Assembly (NCBI GenBank): GCA_025839675.1
Contig: CP104013.1
Location: 3,105,121 to 3,169,120, forward strand
Direction: 5' to 3'
Length of the DNA stretch: 64,000 bases
From: Candidatus Lokiarchaeum ossiferum
GTDB taxonomy: Archaea; Asgardarchaeota; Lokiarchaeia; Sigyniarchaeales; Promethearchaeaceae
Shown: piece by piece, positions 2,948 through 64,000 of the stretch
Layout of the letters: every line of letters starts with the position of its first letter
How positions within the stretch are numbered: position 1 is the first letter of the stretch
The notes under the pieces: generated by a model
What the model saw: the letters and a program-made list of their open reading frames with translations, nothing else
What the model was told of the DNA's origin: nothing
Database searches by the model: none
Translations under genes and position numbers: made by a program

Positions 2948-3139
2948 TTTTAGATCAATTATTTTTCAAAATTTTAATTTTAAATTTCTATATTTTTTAT
3001 CAATAAAAATATATGAACCAATATCAAAAGTAGTAAAATCAGCCCATGGCAAAGTCCTGTTGTACCAATTGTATTAGCTCTGTATGAAATCCGGTTCCTT
3101 GGCTGATTCAAAGCCAGGGTCCATATGTTCCTTTTCCAG

Positions 3140-6330
<3,191 letters not shown>

Positions 6331-34530: not shown

Positions 34531-35460
34531 TCATTCCTCGTCGATGAGAGTCCACTTCTTTTTCTGAAAGATATCATAATTCACTTGTGTTACTTTACCG
34601 CCATCTTCAGTTTGTAAAACCACTTTATTTCGAGTTATTTTTTTTACTATATAATCCATTTGTTCTATTTTTATACGATCCTTAGGAACTACTGGCAAAA
34701 GCCGAAGAAGTGTTGTCAATCGGTAAAGGTCAGATCCTTTTTCTTGATCTACTCCAATCAGTTTCTTGGAAATTTTAATTTCAAAATGATATTTTCCTCT
34801 TAATTTTGCAATTAAAACTCTTGCCATCGCATTGGTACTAACCATCAAGTCAAATCCATTTATAGTATAAGATATTTTTGAGATGTAATTTTGAATCCTT
34901 TGAAAATTCTCAGTATCTTCAATTTTTTTGCATTCAAACATTAGCTCATCTAACTTTAATTTATCTCTCGGACTTTGGATCCGAATTTGAACGATCGCAT
35001 CAAATCTACCCCCTTTCTTTTTGGCACAATAGGGACAGTGAATCTCTTTTCTTCTGATTCTTATGGACTCTTCAGCAGTATTAATTACATCATTAGAACT
35101 GGTGCGTACAACTAAATTAATATCAAAATCTTTATGGATATCTAATTCTTGTTCAAAAAACAATTCATAATTTCGATTATGTTTCTTTTCCAGAGGAATA
35201 AAAATTCGTTCATACAAAATTCTAGTTAGAAAATCAATAGCAGGTTCATCATTTGGTTGATAACACCATTCAAATTCTTGATCATCTTTTTTTAAAGAGA
35301 ATGCTTTGCAATGAACGCATTGTCGAAGTTGAATTTTTCCGGGTAGGTTTGATTCGATAGGCTTTTTGCCCGTGCACTTTTCACAAATAAAGCCTTCATA
35401 TATTTTATCGGTGGCAGTAAACCTATTACCACATTTTGAACAAAATCTGCGCAACTTCAT
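34531..35460 (-). CDS. Nmd3-family protein (archaeal homologue of the 60S export adaptor)
   Basis: N-terminal 4x CxxC zinc-binding domain (CSKCGN, CEKC, CVHC, CPYC) and about 300 aa. Confidence 0.5.
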   Translation of the reverse strand: MKLRRFCSKCGNRFTATDKIYEGFICEKCTGKKPIESNLPGKIQLRQCVHCKAFSLKKDDQEFEWCYQPNDEPAIDFLTRILYERIFIPLEKKHNRNYELFFEQELDIHKDFDINLVVRTSSNDVINTAEESIRIRRKEIHCPYCAKKKGGRFDAIVQIRIQSPRDKLKLDELMFECKKIEDTENFQRIQNYISKISYTINGFDLMVSTNAMARVLIAKLRGKYHFEIKISKKLIGVDQEKGSDLYRLTTLLRLLPVVPKDRIKIEQMDYIVKKITRNKVVLQTEDGGKVTQVNYDIFQKKKWTLIDEE

Positions 35461-46734: not shown

Positions 46735-46855
46735 TGAATACGTAAATTTAAAGGTCCCGCATGAACAGCGGACCAATATGGTCCGTAAAAGAAAGTACCC
46801 CGGAACGGGGCGAAATCAAGGTGATGTGACCATCACCATCCAAAAAGACAAAATA
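46735..46855. ncRNA. Candidate structured RNA or leader element: a GC-rich island with four consecutive hairpins, two of them mutually exclusive
   Basis: ggtcccgc-atgaaca-gcggacc / ggacc-aatat-ggtcc share the middle ggacc arm. These are followed by ccccg-gaa-cgggg and ggtgatg-tgacc-atcacc. The surrounding intergenic DNA is AT-rich. Lies about 100 to 220 nt upstream of the PfkB kinase start on the minus strand. Confidence 0.25.
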
Positions 46856-47120
46856 AAATTCATGCGGAGACCAATATTCTAATAAATTCAAAGAATATAA
46901 ATTCTGAGATTATTCATGATAGGTTTAACCCCGTTATTTTGTTATGGATTACAAGAAATAGATCGAAAATTCAATTATGTCGGTCACCCTTATTTACCTT
47001 CCATCGGATTTAAAACAAAATCAATTCAAAATTTTAAGATATAATTAATATCTCGCAGGAAAGATCAGTATTTCTATTAACAATTTCCCAATACATGAAA
47101 AGAAAAAGAAAAAAAATACC

Positions 47121-48570: not shown

Positions 48571-48768
48571 CCAGATCTCTAAATTTTCTTGTCATTTAAT
48601 AGTGGGAAATTTTCTTGGCTTGCATAATGATGATAAAGCGGAATTAATTTTCCGATTTCATCCTCGTTGATTTTTCGTATCTCCACACCAACTTTCCTCT
48701 GGTATCACTAATGATATTAAATTAAGAAATAACCTTGTTTTCAAAGGGAATTAAAAGGAAAGAGAAAT

Positions 48769-48827
48769 GGCGCAGGTGTCAGGGATCGAACCTGCGACCT
48801 GCCGATTAACAGCCGACCGCTCTACCG
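48769..48827 (-). tRNA. Partial tRNA-Asn(GTT)-like gene: 3' portion only (D-stem 3' strand through acceptor 3' strand plus CCA). No 5' half found adjacent.
   Basis: The reverse complement reads GGTAGAGC-G-GTCGG-CTGTTAA-TCGGC-AGGTC-GCAGG-TTCGATC-CCTGA-CACCTGC-G-CCA. Upstream sequence lacks the acceptor 5' strand and D-stem. Confidence 0.5.
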
Positions 48828-48966
48828 AAGATGTACCATATGCACTCAAATACATAATTCTTAACACCAAAATTCCTAGAAAATTGCTTGGCGTAAGATT
48901 TCGAGTATAATCCTTCTCTATGATAAAGTTTTAATTAATCAAAAACTCAAAAAAAAAAGAAAAAAA

Positions 48967-53794: not shown

Positions 53795-56014
53795 TTACTT
53801 TAACTTCAGTTTAATATTGTCAATTAATTTTTCTTTGATAAATCCCTCTTCTCGAATTAATCGAAAATATTGCCCTTCCTCAAATTTAAACCCAAATTGA
53901 TCCCCACACTCCATGAAAACTTTGTGGCGCAATACCTTCCCAGGAAAATGTTTCCACTCTTCACCACTGGCAACTATTTCCTGTATTCGGTCTGAATATT
54001 TTGCAAACTGTTTGAGATAATACGGTTTATCTACAGATATATGACATTTTTCGCTGGTTAGTATATTCACAGTATTAAGAAAATTATCCAGCAATTCATT
54101 TTCCGATGTTGTACCACCCTTGATTCCCTCGATTATCGGTTTTATTAACTCTTTTTTTTCATCCTCCGAAAATACCTTTGGAAACTCCTCGAAAAAGAAT
54201 TTCAACTTCTTTGTCATCTTCATTGTCTCATCGATAGAAGTTTTGATTAGATTAGACACCTTTTCAAGGGTAATCTCTTCCTCTGAATCTGGATTGGATC
54301 TTTCAATAAGTTCTTTGAGTAGCTCAGGATTGAGGTATAAATTTTCGATTTCCCGCACTGGGAGTAGTACAATTTTATCTCGGATTTCTTTTGCCTTCTT
54401 ATTGCGAATTTCCTTATTACCTTCATCATTATCCAAAATAATGAGAAATTTGAAGTTTTTATTGGTAAAATTCTCTATCAACTGTGCATTTGCCCAATAA
54501 TGTAAATCTCGTTTGCCTCCTAACGGTTGTAGTATGATTCTTTGCTCTTCTAAAATTTCCGGAATTGCTTGTTTGAAAAACTCTACATCATCCTTTCCTT
54601 CCACCAATATCATCCCATTATTCATGAGATAATCTGAAGGTTTGATGCCTAAATCTTCAAAAACTTGTGGTATATTTTCTGCTTTTTCATTATATACATG
54701 AGTTATTTTATCACTTCGTTTTACCCTATGAATGCTCCATCCCTTTTTCATACTATCCAAGAAATATGGTGAATGAGTAGTAATTAAAACTTGAAATCGG
54801 CTCAAATTTTCCTCGATTATTGATAGGAGTATTTTTTGCAAATCAGGATGTATAAAAAGTTCCGGTTCTTCAATTAACAGCAATCCATTTTCTTTTGTTT
54901 CTAATATTGCAACTAAAATTGTTACCAATTGCTGAATCCCCTTCCCCAATTTGTCAAAAGTAAGTTTGTACTCTAAATCTTCTTCTAATACATAAGGAAT
55001 TGTCAAGGGATATTTCTCAATAGGAATGTTTGTTTCTGGGTAATAATCAATATTATAAAGAGAATAATCTGGTTGATGTAAAAAATTTTGATTGATCTCT
55101 TTAATATTAGGATACAATTTGCTCAGATAGTGGTTGAGTTTTTCTAATTTTTCTTTCTCATTTGTGTTATAGCTAAGAATTTTTAGTGGGACATTTTCTC
55201 CATCATATTCAAAATGAAAAGGCTTTGTAGAAGCCTCCACCTTATAGAATGGTAGGAATGAACGATCTTCAACTACCATATTCATCTTGGAATAGAAATC
55301 TATAATCGGTGATAAGAAAAAGTGCAATAAAGGATTGCTATGAACTCGTTTATCAAAAATGGATCTATTATTCAGAAGTTGATTGCCAGGATTCGGAAAT
55401 CCAGTATTGAAAATCGAATTTGGAAAAAAATGCCATTCAAATGAATTACTATTAGCAATGAGTTTTTTCCTTGGTTTGCTAAGTTCCATGTTTCTAATAG
55501 AATATTCATGTCCTACTGAAGTCCTATCCACAAAATTATAGGAAATCAGTCCATTTTTGAAAGTAACTCTTCTAATAAAAATTTCATAACTTGACCCAGG
55601 AGCTACTTCAAATTCATATACAATATTTTCAAATGCCTCCTCTAATAATATCGATTCCTCAGGGTTGAATCGATTATCTTTGAAAAATTTAAATAATTTT
55701 GGGTTTTTCAAGTAGTCTTTTGAATGTTCCCTAAATAGCCTTGATGCTTGATCACGAAAATATTCCAAAATCTTTGATCTATCAAATTTGAATTCTAAAT
55801 TTATCTTTACCGGATGCTTCTGGGAATTGAACTTAATCAATTTTTTATCTAAAAGCTTCCCCGACCTTATACTCTTTAAAATTTTAAATAAATTGCTTTT
55901 CCCTGAATTATTAGGTCCAATTATAACGCCTAAATCCCCAATATTCTCGAATACTTGGTGATCGAAACTTAGCAGATTGAATATTTCTATTCGATGCAAC
56001 CGCGAAATTGTCAT
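53795..56014 (-). CDS. OLD-family nuclease: N-terminal ABC-type ATPase plus C-terminal TOPRIM domain (class 1 OLD / Gabija GajA-like)
   Basis: Walker A GPNNSGKS, Walker B LLLIEEPELFIHP, H-loop ITTHSPYF. TOPRIM MILVEGKDDVEFF and ILDNDEGNKE (DxD). Confidence 0.8.
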   Translation of the reverse strand: MTISRLHRIEIFNLLSFDHQVFENIGDLGVIIGPNNSGKSNLFKILKSIRSGKLLDKKLIKFNSQKHPVKINLEFKFDRSKILEYFRDQASRLFREHSKDYLKNPKLFKFFKDNRFNPEESILLEEAFENIVYEFEVAPGSSYEIFIRRVTFKNGLISYNFVDRTSVGHEYSIRNMELSKPRKKLIANSNSFEWHFFPNSIFNTGFPNPGNQLLNNRSIFDKRVHSNPLLHFFLSPIIDFYSKMNMVVEDRSFLPFYKVEASTKPFHFEYDGENVPLKILSYNTNEKEKLEKLNHYLSKLYPNIKEINQNFLHQPDYSLYNIDYYPETNIPIEKYPLTIPYVLEEDLEYKLTFDKLGKGIQQLVTILVAILETKENGLLLIEEPELFIHPDLQKILLSIIEENLSRFQVLITTHSPYFLDSMKKGWSIHRVKRSDKITHVYNEKAENIPQVFEDLGIKPSDYLMNNGMILVEGKDDVEFFKQAIPEILEEQRIILQPLGGKRDLHYWANAQLIENFTNKNFKFLIILDNDEGNKEIRNKKAKEIRDKIVLLPVREIENLYLNPELLKELIERSNPDSEEEITLEKVSNLIKTSIDETMKMTKKLKFFFEEFPKVFSEDEKKELIKPIIEGIKGGTTSENELLDNFLNTVNILTSEKCHISVDKPYYLKQFAKYSDRIQEIVASGEEWKHFPGKVLRHKVFMECGDQFGFKFEEGQYFRLIREEGFIKEKLIDNIKLKLK

Positions 56015-57288: not shown

Positions 57289-58161
57289 GTGAATATTTTT
57301 AATATTTCACTCGTACTGTTAATATTGTTAGTGAAAAAAAAAATGAATTCCTTAGATTTAGTTGAAGAACGAAATATTTTAGTCGTTCCAATCGGTTTAG
57401 AAAATGAGCGGGTTGTTAAAAGCTGCCAAATTTACCCTGTGAACGTCATTTATCTCTTGAAGAGTAACTTTGAATCTAATTCTGATCATAAGGAAAAAAA
57501 CTCATCCCAATGGGGAATAGAACAATACTCAAAAACAATTGCATCTGAAGTCATTAAGAAATTTGAAAATACTTTTTTTGAAATTCAACCAAAAAATTGC
57601 CATCTCGGCTCCCTCCCGAGCACAATTTCTATTTTAAATGACATCTATGAAATTGAACAGAAAAAGGGAAAATTGAACAAAATTTACATCAATATCTCCA
57701 CCGCATCCAAATTATTCGCAATTGGGGCCTATATTTTTGCCTCTCAATTCCCCGATATATGCAAACTTTTCTATTTGGCCACAAATAATTATCTTCTCTT
57801 GGAACACTTGAAATCGGAAAAAGGGGATTTAGAAAAATTAAAAACGGAATTTAGAAAATTTGGTCTAACAAAAGGACCTTTCAAAGTTGTGAACATCCCA
57901 ATTCTGAAATCGGACCCTTTTTCAACCGATGAAAAACGATTGATCAATTATTTAGCCCAATTTGACCACATCAATTCGATAAAAGAAATATTGGAAAATC
58001 TCAAAAAGGATACCAACGCTAAAGAAAGAATGAATCTTCGCAGATCCCTTGAAAAACTCGAGAAAAACAATTTGCTGATACTAAAAAAAAGTGGAAAATC
58101 GGTTCAGGTTCTTATATCTGATGAATTGAAACAGCTCGCTGGCTCCTTTATACTGGAGTAG
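57289..58161 (+). CDS. Putative CARF-like (Rossmann) N-terminal domain plus C-terminal winged-helix regulator (Csa3-like architecture)
   Basis: ILVVPIGLENERVV (beta1 plus Gly loop) and NISTASK (a CARF dvTgGtK-like motif). C-terminal INYLAQFDHINSIKEILENL...NNLLILKKSGKSVQV resembles a wHTH. Confidence 0.3.
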   Translation: MNIFNISLVLLILLVKKKMNSLDLVEERNILVVPIGLENERVVKSCQIYPVNVIYLLKSNFESNSDHKEKNSSQWGIEQYSKTIASEVIKKFENTFFEIQPKNCHLGSLPSTISILNDIYEIEQKKGKLNKIYINISTASKLFAIGAYIFASQFPDICKLFYLATNNYLLLEHLKSEKGDLEKLKTEFRKFGLTKGPFKVVNIPILKSDPFSTDEKRLINYLAQFDHINSIKEILENLKKDTNAKERMNLRRSLEKLEKNNLLILKKSGKSVQVLISDELKQLAGSFILE

Positions 58162-59241: not shown

Positions 59242-59737
59242 CTTATTAAATTAATTGGATTATTATGGATTTTAAGCCATTTATTAGGACTTTAATACAT
59301 TCCATCATTTCTCGATTTATATATGGATAATCAAATTTTTTGAAATCCATTAGAACCGAATGTGTGAGATTTTTTTTATTTTAAATGATTAAAATAGTTC
59401 TAATCAGTAATTTTAGAAAAAAGTCATGGAAACGACCAATTGACAATCAATCGCAAAGTAAATCAATCATGAATTTTAAGAAGAGGCTAAAAGCGCAAAT
59501 GGAAGACTAATAGACTTATAATTAAATGATAACCAATTTTTTTTTTTATTTTCGATTATTAAATGATTCTACTTATTTTTTTTAATCAAGATGGAAAGCA
59601 TGTGGGTGCACAATTTTTTAATCCAAATTTTTTTTTACAAATCTATAATTTTCATTAGTAAAATTGTGTCTATTAGTTTGATTTGAAACATAGGACTGAT
59701 TGATTTAAAATTTGATTCAAATACTTGGGTTTTTGAT

Positions 59738-60421
59738 ATGAAAAAAAAAATATTTGCATATTATCGGATTTCAACTGAGAAACAAAAAAAAAAGAATACT
59801 CAGGAAAATCAGAAAATTGCAATTTATAATTTTGTTGAAGGTTTAGACGTTGAAATTGTGAATGAATTTGAAGATTTGGGTATTTCAGGGGCAGATAATG
59901 ACCGCCCACAATTCAATCTAATGCTTTCTAAATTGAATGAAGTAGAAGGATTAGTAATCTATGATTTAGACCGATTAACGAGAGATTTTGAAATGGGAGT
60001 AAACTTAATGTTTATGTTGAAAAATTCAAAAAAATCTTTGTATATTGCTCGAACCAAAGATATCAAAGATTTTTCAGATGATTCCGAGCAATTAATGACC
60101 ATTATCAAATCATGGGTTTCTGCACTTGAACGAAAGAAAATTAAAGAAAGACAAAAAATAGGAATTCAACGATATAAAGAAACAAAAGGTCGTTGGGGTA
60201 GAAAGAAATCCTTTGGAAAATATAAAAATCCAGAACAATTTTGGAAAAACTATGATATCTATAGAGATTTGGGTATTTCCAAGACATCCTGTGCAAAATT
60301 ATTAGGTGTCTCTCGTTCAACGATGAATAGACGGATAGAAGAACGTGAAATAAATAAGTCGAAAATCAAAACTACCCCAATTAATAACAAAATCAAAGAA
60401 TGGAGCGAACCAAAACTTTAA
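59738..60421 (+). CDS. Small serine recombinase (resolvase/invertase type): catalytic domain plus C-terminal HTH
   Basis: IFAYYRISTEKQ (catalytic Ser motif), DRLTRD, C-terminal HTH ISKTSCAKLLGVSRSTMNRRIE. Confidence 0.8.
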   Translation: MKKKIFAYYRISTEKQKKKNTQENQKIAIYNFVEGLDVEIVNEFEDLGISGADNDRPQFNLMLSKLNEVEGLVIYDLDRLTRDFEMGVNLMFMLKNSKKSLYIARTKDIKDFSDDSEQLMTIIKSWVSALERKKIKERQKIGIQRYKETKGRWGRKKSFGKYKNPEQFWKNYDIYRDLGISKTSCAKLLGVSRSTMNRRIEEREINKSKIKTTPINNKIKEWSEPKL

Positions 60422-60688: not shown

Positions 60689-61477
60689 ATGATTAGAATG
60701 ATTATTGCATATCTTGACGAAACTGGAGATCCTGTCTATCGAAGGGGTGGCCCTAAATGGTTTGGTATAACTGCCGCAATCTTTCATGATTCAAAATTAC
60801 TTGATGGAATAAATGTGATGAAGTCATTCAATCAAAGTAAATCCGAAGAATATGACTGTGATTTTGAAATACATGCAAGGGAATTTTCCAGCTCGAAAAA
60901 AGAACCTTATAATGCAATGAAAGTTGAAGAAAAAATAGAATTATTTACAGAATGCTTACATACTGTCAAAAATACTGGTGCTTCAATTTGCGGTGTGTTT
61001 GTTGATAAAGTTAAGCATAGTTATTGGCATGGTAAATATGATTTTTTAAAAAATGTAGTTATGAACCTATTTGAAAGGATAGGTAGATATCAGATTGCAA
61101 ATTATCCTAATGAAGCCATTCTGATATTATATGACCAACCTTCTGCCCATTTAAGACCAATTATTAAACAATATTTCAAAGAAAGATTAGAAGTCGGTTC
61201 AAGATATGTCAAACCTGCGTTTTTCTTGAAAGAAATCTTATATGTTGAATCTAAATTTCATCAACCTATTCAAATAGCAGATTTAACAGGATATATTGTA
61301 AGAAGATTGATAGAAAAACGTATAGATGGTACATTTTCCAGTTTTCTAAAGTATGTTGATGACTTGTATAAAATAATTCGACCAATGTTAGATTTCAATC
61401 CAACAACAAAAGAAATATATGGGGCAGGAATTAAAATTATTGAAAGTAATGACAGGAAATATTATGGACGTTTCTGA
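60689..61477 (+). CDS. DUF3800-family protein
   Basis: Hallmark N-terminal IAYLDETGD and C-terminal PIQIADLTGYIV motifs of DUF3800. Confidence 0.7.
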   Translation: MIRMIIAYLDETGDPVYRRGGPKWFGITAAIFHDSKLLDGINVMKSFNQSKSEEYDCDFEIHAREFSSSKKEPYNAMKVEEKIELFTECLHTVKNTGASICGVFVDKVKHSYWHGKYDFLKNVVMNLFERIGRYQIANYPNEAILILYDQPSAHLRPIIKQYFKERLEVGSRYVKPAFFLKEILYVESKFHQPIQIADLTGYIVRRLIEKRIDGTFSSFLKYVDDLYKIIRPMLDFNPTTKEIYGAGIKIIESNDRKYYGRF

Positions 61478-61513
61478 ACAGAGTGTTTGCTTAACCAAAT
61501 ATGAAAATACCTT

Positions 61514-61870
61514 TTATGGATCCAAAAATTTTCTTTTTCGGTTATTTGCCGTTATTTTCTTATAATTCTCAGTAGTTTCTCTTACGTTATCTATTCCAGT
61601 ATCAATTAAGATTTGTTCAAATTTGCTACTTAAATTTTTGAATTTTATTGCATTATCAGCATAAGAATCAATATATTCATCAGGTTTTTTTTCAGGTTCT
61701 TTATTAAGGAATTTTAATAAGGAATATGATTTTGCCCCATGTTCAGCAGACAATTGGGCTTTGTGGTCGAGTTCTTCATATTTATCATAAGTAGCCGCAA
61801 AAATTGCATATAATTCAATTAAATCTAAAGGAATATTTAAAATTGGCATTTCATCTTCTTCAAAAGACAT
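61514..61870 (-). CDS. Hypothetical acidic protein
   Basis: 118-aa ORF convergent with the DUF3800 gene; no motif recognised. Confidence 0.35.
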   Translation of the reverse strand: MSFEEDEMPILNIPLDLIELYAIFAATYDKYEELDHKAQLSAEHGAKSYSLLKFLNKEPEKKPDEYIDSYADNAIKFKNLSSKFEQILIDTGIDNVRETTENYKKITANNRKRKFLDP

Positions 61871-62036
61871 AATTGCATTAAAAAAATAACGGATAAAAAG
61901 TTTAGTTCTTTTTTTCGGTTCCGATTATCTGGTATACGGTTCCGAACCCTTTAGAAATAGTTAATTTGTCATCCTTCTTCAGAAAATATCTACTAATGTC
62001 GGTTCCGAATTGATTTTGCTAATAAATGGGACCGAA

Positions 62037-62063
62037 ATTAGCGAGATTAGCGAGATTAGCGAG
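62037..62063. repeat. Perfect tandem repeat 3 x ATTAGCGAG (9-mer), next to four copies of a GG(T/A)(T)CCGA(A)TT motif at 61916 to 62036
   Basis: Read directly: attagcgag attagcgag attagcgag. The upstream tcggttccgaatt motif occurs twice, plus ggttccgattat and gggaccgaaatt. Confidence 0.8.
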
Positions 62064-63052
62064 TATTTCAGACAATAAGGTGATTTCATCACCCCACGTG
62101 ATATTTTTTCTTGGATTGATTCTAAGAATCGCAAATATGGACAGAAAATAGAAAAAACCCCTATTGGGTGATATGTTCAGTTTTCAAGCAAATCCCTTCC
62201 GCCGCGACACTTTCCTTTTTATCCTAAAAATCGAGAAGAGCTTAATTCTATTAACAAGAATTTAATTTCGAGCGTAAAGTCTGTTTAAATTCCTCAAATT
62301 TTTCGGTTACTCATTTTTTGCCAATTATTTCTCTTTTATTTAAAAAATAAACTTGATTGCTCAATTTATTATGCCATTTTAGAATAAGTATAAATGATAT
62401 TTATATCTACATATAAACTGAATTTATACATATCTATATATTATGTTTATTATTGAATGAAATTGGATAATTATATAAGACTTAATTTAATTATAATATA
62501 TTAGAGACGATTAATTTTTCTGACTCTTTTCTAGGTGAATATAAATGTTAAAAAAAGAAAAAAAATTGCAAAGAAAGAAGCTCAGTGCATTTAAAAATAT
62601 TAAAGAACTTCTAAAACGAATACTAGCTTATATCGTGTTAAAAAAACTGATTTCCATAATAGAATTGGTTTTGCTTTAAACCATTTGTGTGAGTTTTTTT
62701 TTTTTTTTTTTTAATAATTTTTTCTAAATTTTTATTTCTGTCTTAAAAAATTAAAGTGAATTGCTACATTATTGGCTATACCAGTGTTTTATCATAAGAA
62801 TCCACTATGTCGACTCAATCATATCCTAATTTTCCTAAAATTTGACCCAAAAGCATTTTATCAAATCTAAAGTATTTCAAAATGATTATGCTATTCATAT
62901 TGACCAAAATCAAATCCCCTTCAGTTTTATAATCGAGCTTGAATTTGATAATCAATATATGACACATGTTGGATAATCTGAGATTTGAACAAATTTGTAG
63001 TTACATATTGCTTGTGATTAATGATTGTTGGGACCAAGTAACTTTTACAATA

Positions 63053-63083
63053 GAAAGAGGAAATGGCACAGGTGACATGGACC
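63053..63083. repeat. Imperfect direct-repeat copy of the tRNA-Asn 3' end plus flank (partner at 48758 to 48793); candidate att-like boundary
   Basis: GAAAGAGGAAATGGCACAGGTGACATGGACC versus GAAAGAG-AAATGGCGCAGGTGTCAGGGATCGAACC at 48758; about 26 of 29 aligned positions match, same orientation. Confidence 0.45.
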
Positions 63084-63217
63084 TAACTCGCTGATTACAC
63101 TATATCTATACGTAGACGTTTCATTTTCAAAAATAATTTGTAGGACGAATCCATCATTTCATGCATTGACTCCCTTAATCAAAACTATAAATACACATCC
63201 TAACAATTACCTATTAG

Positions 63218-63748
63218 GTGTTTGAAATTCCGAAAGATGATCTCAATCAAGAAAAAGTCGACTACTTAAAAACCGTCTTCTCCCACAATCGCAGTATGAT
63301 CCAACTTGCAGACAACAAAGCCAGCATTTTAATCCGAATTATTGTAGTTATCCTCCCAATTATTTTTGGAATCGATTCCTACTTAACTACAATTACTCTC
63401 CATAATAGCCTAAAAACCTTTCAATATGTTAGCTTTATCATTTGTATGGTTACCTTCATCATTTCATTCTTCTTATCGACAGGTGTTCTAATGGCTCGAT
63501 TTGCTGAATATGATGATCATATCTTCTTTTCAAATATTGAAAAAGATTCCCTTGAAGATTATCAAAATATTATTGAAGAAATGGATGATTATGTCATTTT
63601 TGAAGATTATATCAAAGAAAATTATGCAATTGCCAAAATCAATAAAAAAAAGTATCAATGCTACAATATTTCCTTTTGGTTCCTTAATGCTGCGGTACTT
63701 TTATTGGTAATTCGATATATCTTATTGTTTACTTACCTTTTTTATTAA
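63218..63748 (+). CDS. Small membrane protein with 3 predicted TM helices and an acidic central loop (hypothetical; possible effector-like)
   Basis: Hydrophobic helices at about aa 36 to 58 and 68 to 92, and a C-terminal one at about 150 to 172. N-terminal MIQLADNKAS motif. Confidence 0.45.
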   Translation: MFEIPKDDLNQEKVDYLKTVFSHNRSMIQLADNKASILIRIIVVILPIIFGIDSYLTTITLHNSLKTFQYVSFIICMVTFIISFFLSTGVLMARFAEYDDHIFFSNIEKDSLEDYQNIIEEMDDYVIFEDYIKENYAIAKINKKKYQCYNISFWFLNAAVLLLVIRYILLFTYLFY

Positions 63749-64000
63749 ATCTCAATTAAATTTTCTTTTTTTATGTCTCTCTCCCACTATACGCAAATAT
63801 CTTGTAATTTTTCAATTCTTGAAAATTTGACTTCATTTTCCGAAAATATGAACAACAATAAAACGGAGGTTCAATTTCCTCACAATTATCTTTCTTTTCC
63901 TTGGATAGTTGAAAGAAAACATCGTACCCAATGCAAATCGTGATTTTTTCTTTAAAAGAAGCATGCTTTTTTCCAATGGATTCTAATCTCTTCGCTGCTA

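Follow-up and report, generated by a model that had tools for sequence, protein, structure and literature searches.

A helix-phased repeat array between promoter-like boxes in a tRNA-bounded defence island of Candidatus Lokiarchaeum ossiferum

Introduction

What purpose is served by a cluster of short, exact repeats that lies near the most AT-rich DNA of its surroundings in the chromosome of an Asgard archaeon? The question arises in Candidatus Lokiarchaeum ossiferum, in a stretch of 64,000 nucleotides (GenBank assembly GCA_025839675.1, contig CP104013.1, positions 3,105,121 to 3,169,120; henceforth the window, with positions counted from its first letter). Here a set of dyad-symmetric sites and a 9-bp tandem repeat, followed by an AT-rich tract with a long T run, occupy a gap of 1,347 bp that is free of open reading frames (ORFs; 61871–63217), the longest such gap in the window. 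A sequence-only reading of the locus had likened it to the replication origin of a plasmid or other element or, failing that, to a binding array for a partition or regulatory protein. To our knowledge, none of the replication origins of Asgard archaea and hardly any of their cis-regulatory elements have been characterised.

The repeats and the AT-rich features are real and non-random, with some of the numbers first given for them in need of correction. The repeats most likely represent a control region to which a protein binds, rather than a replication origin, because they sit at the promoter of a gene within an island that has no replication genes. More specifically, and with a confidence just short of an even chance, we read them as operators, arrayed at the divergent promoter of a module derived from a mobile element and bound by a dimeric protein, the AT-rich tract being junction or spacer DNA.

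Results

Three dyad sites and a tandem 9-mer

The sequence CGGTTCCGA occurs exactly three times in the window, at 61916, 61937 and 62000, always on the plus strand. Two of the three copies extend to TCGGTTCCGA, a 4+2+4 dyad (TCGG-TT-CCGA) with TT at its centre; symmetry of this kind is expected in ∼0.4% of random 10-mers, and the pattern TCGGNNCCGA is matched twice against an expectation of 0.29. The sites so defined are site 1 (TCGGTTCCGA, 61915–61924), site 2 (ACGGTTCCGA, 61936–61945) and site 3 (TCGGTTCCGA, 61999–62008). Measured from start to start, sites 1 and 2 are separated by 21 bp and sites 2 and 3 by 63 bp: both distances are multiples of 10.5 bp. Outside a conserved core of 9–10 bp the three exact copies are mutually unrelated, and since identity is confined to this core it does not stem from recent duplication. 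In the two in-phase slots between copies 2 and 3 (61957 and 61978) no decayed copies can be read.

A fourth copy had also been counted. The candidate, GGGACCGA (62028–62035, read from the sequence), is doubtful: it merges into the neighbouring tandem repeat, agrees with GGTTCCGA at six of eight positions, falls off the helical phase and is missed when up to two mismatches to the 10-mer are allowed. The motif as first written, GG[TA]TCCGA(A)TT, fits two of the sites, but also an unrelated sequence at 34977. The perfect threefold tandem repeat was correctly described: ATTAGCGAG is present three times without mismatch (62037–62063), inside a repeat of CGAGATTAG to which Tandem Repeats Finder assigns a period of 9 and 3.4 copies (62033–62063). 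A perfect 6+3+6 palindrome, GGTGAT-TTC-ATCACC (62078–62092; read from the sequence, and a hairpin in the folds), is placed between the array and a rightward TATA-like box described below.

Clusters of this kind are rare. In the whole window just two 9-mers recur at least three times, exactly and without overlap, inside 130 bp, and this locus has both; in 60 runs of a first-order Markov simulation, 64 kb of sequence yielded on average 0.1 such clusters and never more than one. Degenerate copies of either repeat showed no enrichment elsewhere in the window. Repeats, symmetry and phasing are direct observations, and it is binding by a protein that we infer from them.

Two outward-facing boxes enclose the array

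The left edge of the gap is formed by NEF87_002684 (61514–61870, minus strand), a gene for a hypothetical protein of 118 aa (100% match to a Ca. L. ossiferum protein). Its ATG is preceded at 20 nt by a TATA-like box, CTTTTTATCC (61891–61900, minus strand), and dyad site 1 lies 14 bp upstream of that box; on the minus strand the order is TCGGAACCGA-N14-CTTTTTATCC-N20-ATG. The box is centred ∼26 nt before the start codon, which is the geometry of a leaderless archaeal transcript, and we infer that it acts as the promoter of a leaderless 118-aa gene (archaeal promoter elements were assigned by eye).

A second, identical box faces outward on the other side of the array (62215–62224, plus strand) and is a candidate rightward promoter. 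Neither an ORF nor a structured RNA was found after it, the fold of 62244–62320 having a z-score of +0.5. The window holds three copies of CTTTTTATCC against 0.51 expected, a count reached in one of 100 shuffles. The two boxes stand ∼315 bp apart and enclose the dyads, the 9-mer triplet and the palindrome.

A small protein family with its own upstream repeats

A full HMMER scan of 1.84 billion representatives returned just two homologues of the 118-aa protein, at 34–35% identity. The first, P0003 (34% identity), is encoded on L284, a 32-kb metagenomic contig of 27% GC (JGI Ga0392328_0000404). A D5_N/DUF5906 primase-helicase gene lies ∼3 kb upstream of it on the same contig, and its context is for this reason mobile-element-like. 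The P0003 gene is preceded by CTTTTTATTT, likewise 20 nt before the ATG, and upstream of this box are 440 bp of dense repeats (a 92-bp unit present twice at 94%, AAAAATCACA in 2.2 copies, and families of 14–26 nt in two or three copies) whose sequence is unrelated to the Lokiarchaeum array. The second homologue, P0004, has two copies of TTCCAGAAA, 26 bp apart, upstream of its gene.

As judged from sequence, the layout of the family is a recurring one: a repeat array, a TATA box and a small acidic helical protein, with a different repeat sequence each time. It is in this architecture, and not in the sequence of the repeats, that the Lokiarchaeum locus resembles its homologues. A different repeat in each homologue is the pattern expected if DNA-binding specificity co-evolves with its sites. 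The repeat-dense, AT-rich gap of L284 (4559–5000), in which the repeats include a 10-bp tandem, could be the control region or the origin of an as yet uncharacterised element, whose DNA is AT-rich in the manner of Lokiarchaeal DNA.

The 118-aa protein is acidic. An AlphaFold2 model built on a three-sequence alignment (predicted local distance difference test score, pLDDT, 75.8) has three long helices, and the protein is predicted to be a three-helix bundle. The model gave no significant fold match in the PDB, only generic helical bundles, and no helix-turn-helix (HTH) or ribbon-helix-helix (RHH). The protein has no Pfam, PHROG, NCBIfam or PADLOC match, and profile searches of PDB and Pfam were empty. 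Because there is no HTH or RHH and no structural or profile match, it is not evidently the protein that binds the array.

The AT-rich tract and the remainder of the gap

The AT-rich tract is present as claimed, 450 bp in length (62313–62762), but at 81.1% AT rather than the 85% first stated, and it begins 247 bp after the last repeat; the intervening spacer (62064–62309) is of average composition (66% AT). AT content rises to 84% in the best 200 bp and to 87% in the best 100 bp (62397–62496). At every scale from 100 to 450 bp the tract is the most AT-rich stretch of the window, with a modest excess: other intergenic stretches reach 76–78% AT, and the genome as a whole is 66% AT. A degenerate period-23 repeat is found at 62389–62450.

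The T run had been reported as T17; it measures T19 (62694–62712, plus strand) and is the longest homopolymer of the window, the next longest being 11. Oligo-T tracts terminate transcription by archaeal RNA polymerase, and T19 would therefore halt rightward transcripts before the attachment-like scar and the Pycsar effector gene that lie further to the right (see below). By this analogy it is a candidate oligo-T terminator or insulator for rightward transcription, possibly slippage-prone. A 22-nt string, TGTGTGAG, together with a T run, is shared by 59361–59382 and 62686–62707 (91% identity, E = 0.27); the one copy adjoins T19, the other lies upstream of the recombinase region, and the string is either a terminator-like element or chance. 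An ORF of 44 aa (62545–62679, plus strand) ends 15 nt before T19. It has a basic N-terminus, a hydrophobic C-terminus and a GGTGA 8 nt before its ATG; there is no called gene on record for it and no PHROG match, and it is possibly a small gene, or else chance.

Nothing else in the gap has the appearance of a gene. A decayed gene was rejected on the basis of a six-frame translation of 61871–63217, which had no Pfam match at E ≤ 1. A structured RNA was also rejected: Rfam at a permissive threshold gave nothing credible in the gap, and folds of both of its strands were no better than those of shuffled controls (z-scores of −1.0 to +0.5). A blastn search of the whole gap against plasmid and phage collections produced nothing meaningful. 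A string resembling a tRNA 3′ end at 62188–62208 (CAAATCCCTTCCGCCGCG) was considered as an attachment-site remnant and rejected, its number of matches being about that expected by chance: there are 35 exact matches in 185,579 species genomes, none of them inside a tRNA gene.

Among the Logan contigs assembled from culture runs, one ends at 62159 (three samples) and another starts at 62172 (two samples). The 12 nt CCTATTGGGTGA, ∼100 bp to the right of the array, are missing from both. On the simplest reading this break may reflect a short polymorphism in the cultured population; it may also be an assembly artefact.

A tRNA-Asn-bounded defence island

The array lies inside an island of ∼15.9 kb, as judged by the direct repeats of a tRNA-Asn 3′ end that flank it. 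At the left boundary a tRNA-Asn(GUU)-like fragment (48758–48843, minus strand; Rfam tRNA alignment) has an intact anticodon arm, T arm and 3′ acceptor strand and a non-pairing 5′ part; ARAGORN calls no tRNA there. The right boundary is found on the Logan contig L282, which was reached by way of a 42-aa ORF called by the Logan gene caller. L282 is identical to the window over 62172–64000 and runs on to window-equivalent 64674, adding 674 bp. The boundary repeat at 48758–48804 agrees with L282 2454–2500 (window-equivalent 64625–64671) at 46 of 47 positions (E = 7e-20). There are three copies in all, each comprising the tRNA-Asn(GUU) 3′ end and ∼10 nt of flank: the left one, the right one (L282 2454–2503, window-equivalent 64625–64674) and a degenerate one within the gap (63053–63087, minus strand; core 17/18, E = 0.014, with the alignment reaching ∼30 nt). 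The Rfam tRNA model scores the left copy, itself degenerate, at 17.2 bits and the right copy, truncated by the contig end, at 18.5 bits, both below threshold. Going by its sequence, the copy within the gap is probably the scar of an inner attachment (att) junction between two island modules, and suggests that two modules have been fused. On one side of the scar is the Pycsar module, on the other the remainder of the island; array and tract lie 0.3–1.1 kb to the left of the scar.

Left of the gap the 118-aa gene is followed by a DUF3800 gene and by a 227-aa serine recombinase (59738–60421), which is DNA-invertase-like (phrog_125, E = 1e-36) and has a weak Mpi-family match. Further left are a 346-aa membrane ORF, a CARF3-family protein (57289–58161), a 739-aa ATPase with a DUF4435/Toprim-like domain (53795–56014; PADLOC) and a 1,452-aa surface protein. 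The C-terminal 82 residues of the CARF3 protein give a sub-threshold winged-helix match (E = 0.002; 18.4 bits against a cut-off of 22.8). For the ATPase the best PADLOC matches are to AriAB/AriA (PARIS) and Old models, with GajA lower. No relatives of the DUF3800 and recombinase genes were found in viral contigs.

The right edge of the gap is the gene for PycTM, a Pycsar effector (63218–63748, plus strand; PADLOC E = 6e-22). It has a TATA box of its own, TATAAATA (63186–63193), ∼28 nt before a GTG start that comes right after an in-frame TAG. L282 adds a nucleotide cyclase (Guanylate_cyc, 25.5 bits against a cut-off of 21.9; L282 1600–2313, window-equivalent 63771–64484, minus strand) and then the 3′ part of a minus-strand tRNA. 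The cyclase is convergent with PycTM and completes the Pycsar pair; on a related contig, L157, the two genes are co-directional. A database of 5.8 billion proteins holds no entry matching full-length PycTM or the C-terminal 75 aa of the cyclase, and of PycTM the Logan gene caller picked up no more than a C-terminal piece of 85 aa, so that both proteins look unannotated or mis-called in public records. On L157 the PycTM homologue follows an ATPase/DUF4435 gene pair after 250 bp, without such repeats. Given that this gap is short and repeat-free, the gap and repeats of Ca. L. ossiferum belong to the recombinase/DUF3800/118-aa module and not to Pycsar.

Mobile elements and CRISPR-Cas loci of Asgard archaea integrate at tRNA genes (PMC8813620), and in strain B35 two Pycsar systems are clustered with a Gabija operon that, like them, is absent in B36 (preprint, bioRxiv 10.64898/2026.02.13.705702). 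The present island resembles the tRNA-linked islands and integrated elements of Asgard archaea (PMC8813620, PMC11529989) in the tRNA 3′-end repeats that bound its 15.9 kb and in its defence genes. It differs from them in its recombination genes: neither a tyrosine nor an SSV-type integrase was found among the island ORFs or in the six-frame translation of the gap, and the single recombinase is a small serine enzyme of the invertase-like kind.

The window as a whole is AT-rich chromosomal DNA (66% AT) of Ca. L. ossiferum. Its scanned ORFs include the housekeeping genes PAN, aRF1, TFB, FtsZ, NMD3 and RPA. An archaeal 23S rRNA gene is present at 3137–6321; 16S, 5S and tRNA genes were not detected in the 64 kb (Rfam gathering threshold, ARAGORN), and because the 23S gene stands alone the rRNA genes appear to be unlinked here. 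Between genes for a PfkB kinase and DinB is a GC-rich multi-hairpin element (46755–46870) in which a 10-bp closing stem, CCCGCATGAA...TTCATGCGG, surrounds three hairpins. Its fold has z-scores of −5.2 (plus strand) and −6.0 (minus strand) against 200 shuffles. The element has no Rfam match at a permissive threshold and is a candidate unannotated non-coding RNA; two Logan contigs end or begin inside it, at 46860 and 46838.

Discussion

Origin, partition site, recombination site or debris?

Archaeal origins comprise an AT-rich unwinding element amid origin recognition boxes (ORBs) with a G-string, often in inverted pairs, and they normally adjoin the orc1/cdc6 gene that acts on them (PMC7776575, PMC7617429). 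The tract at 62313–62762 would serve as the unwinding element, and this is the only feature of an origin that the locus offers. There is a general likeness to Orc1/Cdc6 origins (PMC7776575, PMC7617429) in the AT tract with repeated, dyad-containing elements nearby, but here there is no flanking inverted ORB pair, no G-string and no adjacent orc1/cdc6, and the setting is a strain-variable defence island. We scanned all window ORFs of at least 300 aa, and the island ORFs against Pfam, PADLOC, PHROGs and NCBIfam. No Cdc6, Rep, MCM or primase domain was found in the former, where the sole AAA+ match is the proteasome ATPase PAN (759–1985), and no replication or partition family among the latter; the 674 bp past the window, with the cyclase gene and part of a tRNA, contain no initiator or partition gene. 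The geometry is wrong as well. Each of the three dyads is found on the left side of the tract, at a distance of at least 247 bp and beyond a spacer of 66% AT; to the right of the tract, up to 63217, there is no dyad copy at up to two mismatches, and no significant inverted pair surrounds it. Neither an ORB-like core nor a G5 run occurs in 61400–63300. Cumulative GC skew, proposed earlier as a check, falls steadily and has no inflection above the normal noise of the window: the rise at 59–62 kb (+0.26) is no larger than those at 37–40 and 41–44 kb, and only 2 kb lie beyond the site. Classical plasmid iterons are direct repeats of 17–22 bp beside a rep gene, with an AT-rich region abutting them. 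The present repeats share with such origins a direct orientation, a spacing of ∼21 bp and the proximity of an AT-rich tract; they differ in that three copies are unevenly spaced, the core is 9–10 bp, there is no rep gene and the tract is 247 bp away. Searches of viral contigs (gap N8–38) and metagenome contigs (gap N9–13) for the same iteron, also suggested before, found no relative among the matches listed, which were GC-rich coding repeats apart from a single AT-rich one, the end of a eukaryotic hAT transposon; two tandem copies of ATTAGCGAG had four matches in the viral collection, all unrelated. The motifs are enriched, yet no replication or partition gene is present at the locus. An active or relic origin of an integrative element, with the dyads and 9-mers as initiator-binding sites and the AT tract as the part that unwinds, would account for clustered direct repeats near the window's most AT-rich 100–450 bp within a tRNA-flanked island, and there are Asgard integrated elements on record whose replication starts from a defined origin (PMC8813620). 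It would also fit the fact that the only homologue of the 118-aa gene with known context adjoins a repeat-dense, AT-rich gap on a contig with a primase-helicase, but that gap and the primase-helicase gene are ∼2.5 kb apart and other genes intervene. All told, we think an origin quite unlikely. A small gene downstream of a short-repeat array, with a repeat that varies by homologue, is the pattern of centromere-binding proteins, and the 118-aa gene and its homologues conform to it. A centromere-like partition site, or an array bound by the 118-aa protein itself in the manner of ParR/parC or omega, is nevertheless very improbable, for a ParA, ParM or TubZ domain was found neither among the island ORFs nor, by precomputed annotation, in the genes that neighbour the homologues, and the predicted three-helix bundle has neither an RHH/HTH nor a significant structural match. 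Of the binding array offered earlier as a fallback, the regulatory part fits the evidence best, whereas the partition part finds no partition gene. There is a slim prospect that dyads, 9-mer triplet and AT/T19 tract together serve an Asgard integrative element as the cis-acting locus for its replication or maintenance (an origin or a centromere, whether still active or orphaned not long ago), with the 118-aa family as its dedicated site-binding factor.

It is also conceivable, if unlikely, that the array has no function: slippage would have produced the 9-bp triplet as a microsatellite, and the three 9-mers would be left over from local duplication, or owe their likeness to chance, in the decaying junction DNA of an old island. 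The att-like scar within the gap, the absence of ORFs and of Pfam signal, and the lack of an integrase in the island, which suggests decay, are all in keeping with this, and T19 and the tandem 9-mer are typical products of slippage. Debris does not, however, explain why exact conservation is confined to a dyad-symmetric core between diverged flanks, why the sites keep helical phase directly beside a conserved promoter box, or why analogous arrays stand upstream of the homologues; and the chance probability is very low (0.1 clusters expected per 64 kb). We regard it as scarcely probable that the dyads are sites of the invertase-like serine recombinase, with TT as the crossover, or arm-type sites of a lost integrase or excisionase. 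The DNA-invertase-like gene is 1.5 kb away, the dyad has an asymmetric central dinucleotide, and 150 bp from the array, at 62159/62172, the same break recurs in public assemblies. The res and hix/gix sites of such enzymes are 26–28 bp long, with two inverted half-sites of ∼12 bp around a 2-bp crossover. The symmetry here extends over just 10 bp (4+2+4), with asymmetric flanks in place of 12-bp half-sites; all copies are direct, 21–84 bp apart, and lie away from the recombinase gene and ∼1.05 kb from the att-like scar. Nor is there an inverted-repeat partner of at least 14 nt within 11 kb, and an invertible segment was rejected since no convincing inverted repeat (at least 14 nt, high identity) was found in 53–64 kb.

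An operator array at a divergent promoter

On the reading that we favour, an operator array, the three sites, all on one face of the helix, would each present the 10-bp dyad TCGG-TT-CCGA to a dimeric, sequence-specific DNA-binding protein, with the ATTAGCGAG triplet as a possible second kind of binding site. Binding just upstream of the TFB-recognition element (BRE)/TATA region would control the leaderless 118-aa gene to the left, and the same binding may control the rightward promoter with its identical TATA-like box: a divergent switch of the sort that temperate elements form with operator triplets placed between two diverging promoters. The 450 bp of AT-rich DNA that finish with T19 would be non-coding filler at the seam of two modules in a horizontally acquired island; the Pycsar effector gene has a promoter of its own, and T19 probably stops rightward transcripts short of it. 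A purely conjectural candidate for the binder is the CARF3 protein of the island, with its weak winged-helix C-terminus; another factor could serve as well.

In support of an operator, dyad site 1 stands 14 bp upstream of CTTTTTATCC, and both box and geometry are kept in a homologue of 34% identity. The two repeats make up the only 9-mer clusters of their kind in 64 kb, where 0.1 are expected, and the gap contains no structured RNA and no coding remnant. Several points weigh on the other side. Binders are candidates only, and the 118-aa protein lacks a DNA-binding fold in its predicted structure. Occurrences of the dyad motif are known from the 64-kb window alone; the comparison with the homologue concerns architecture, there being no orthologous locus for these sites; and the promoter elements were assigned by eye from sequence. 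The rightward box is without an evident product, and the length, AT content and T19 run of the tract are not required by a purely regulatory model.

Operator arrays have well-known precedents. The OR1–3 triplet of lambda is an operator array between divergent promoters, and the repressor F55 of SSV1 binds tandem sites at viral promoters. The locus described here shares with the arrays of temperate and mobile elements several dyad sites within ∼100–150 bp, helix-phased and at outward-facing boxes, in a context derived from a mobile element and with a site sequence that varies between homologous modules. It departs from arrays of the lambda OR or F55 type in its 10-bp site, the abutting 9-bp tandem repeat and the 118-aa product without a recognisable DNA-binding fold.

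As an operator and nothing more, the array would be a commonplace regulatory element whose host happens to be unusual. A clean, testable candidate for a protein-binding array in a cultured Asgard species is nonetheless of some value. Should the locus instead serve replication or maintenance, the 118-aa proteins would constitute a novel origin- or centromere-binding family, one that has arrays specific to each lineage and is shared with the primase-helicase-encoding element of L284. The analysis also defines a tRNA-Asn-bounded defence island of ∼15.9 kb with a Pycsar pair, a Gabija/PARIS-like ATPase and an inner junction scar, and a small mobile-element-linked protein family whose genes each carry a repeat array of their own upstream.

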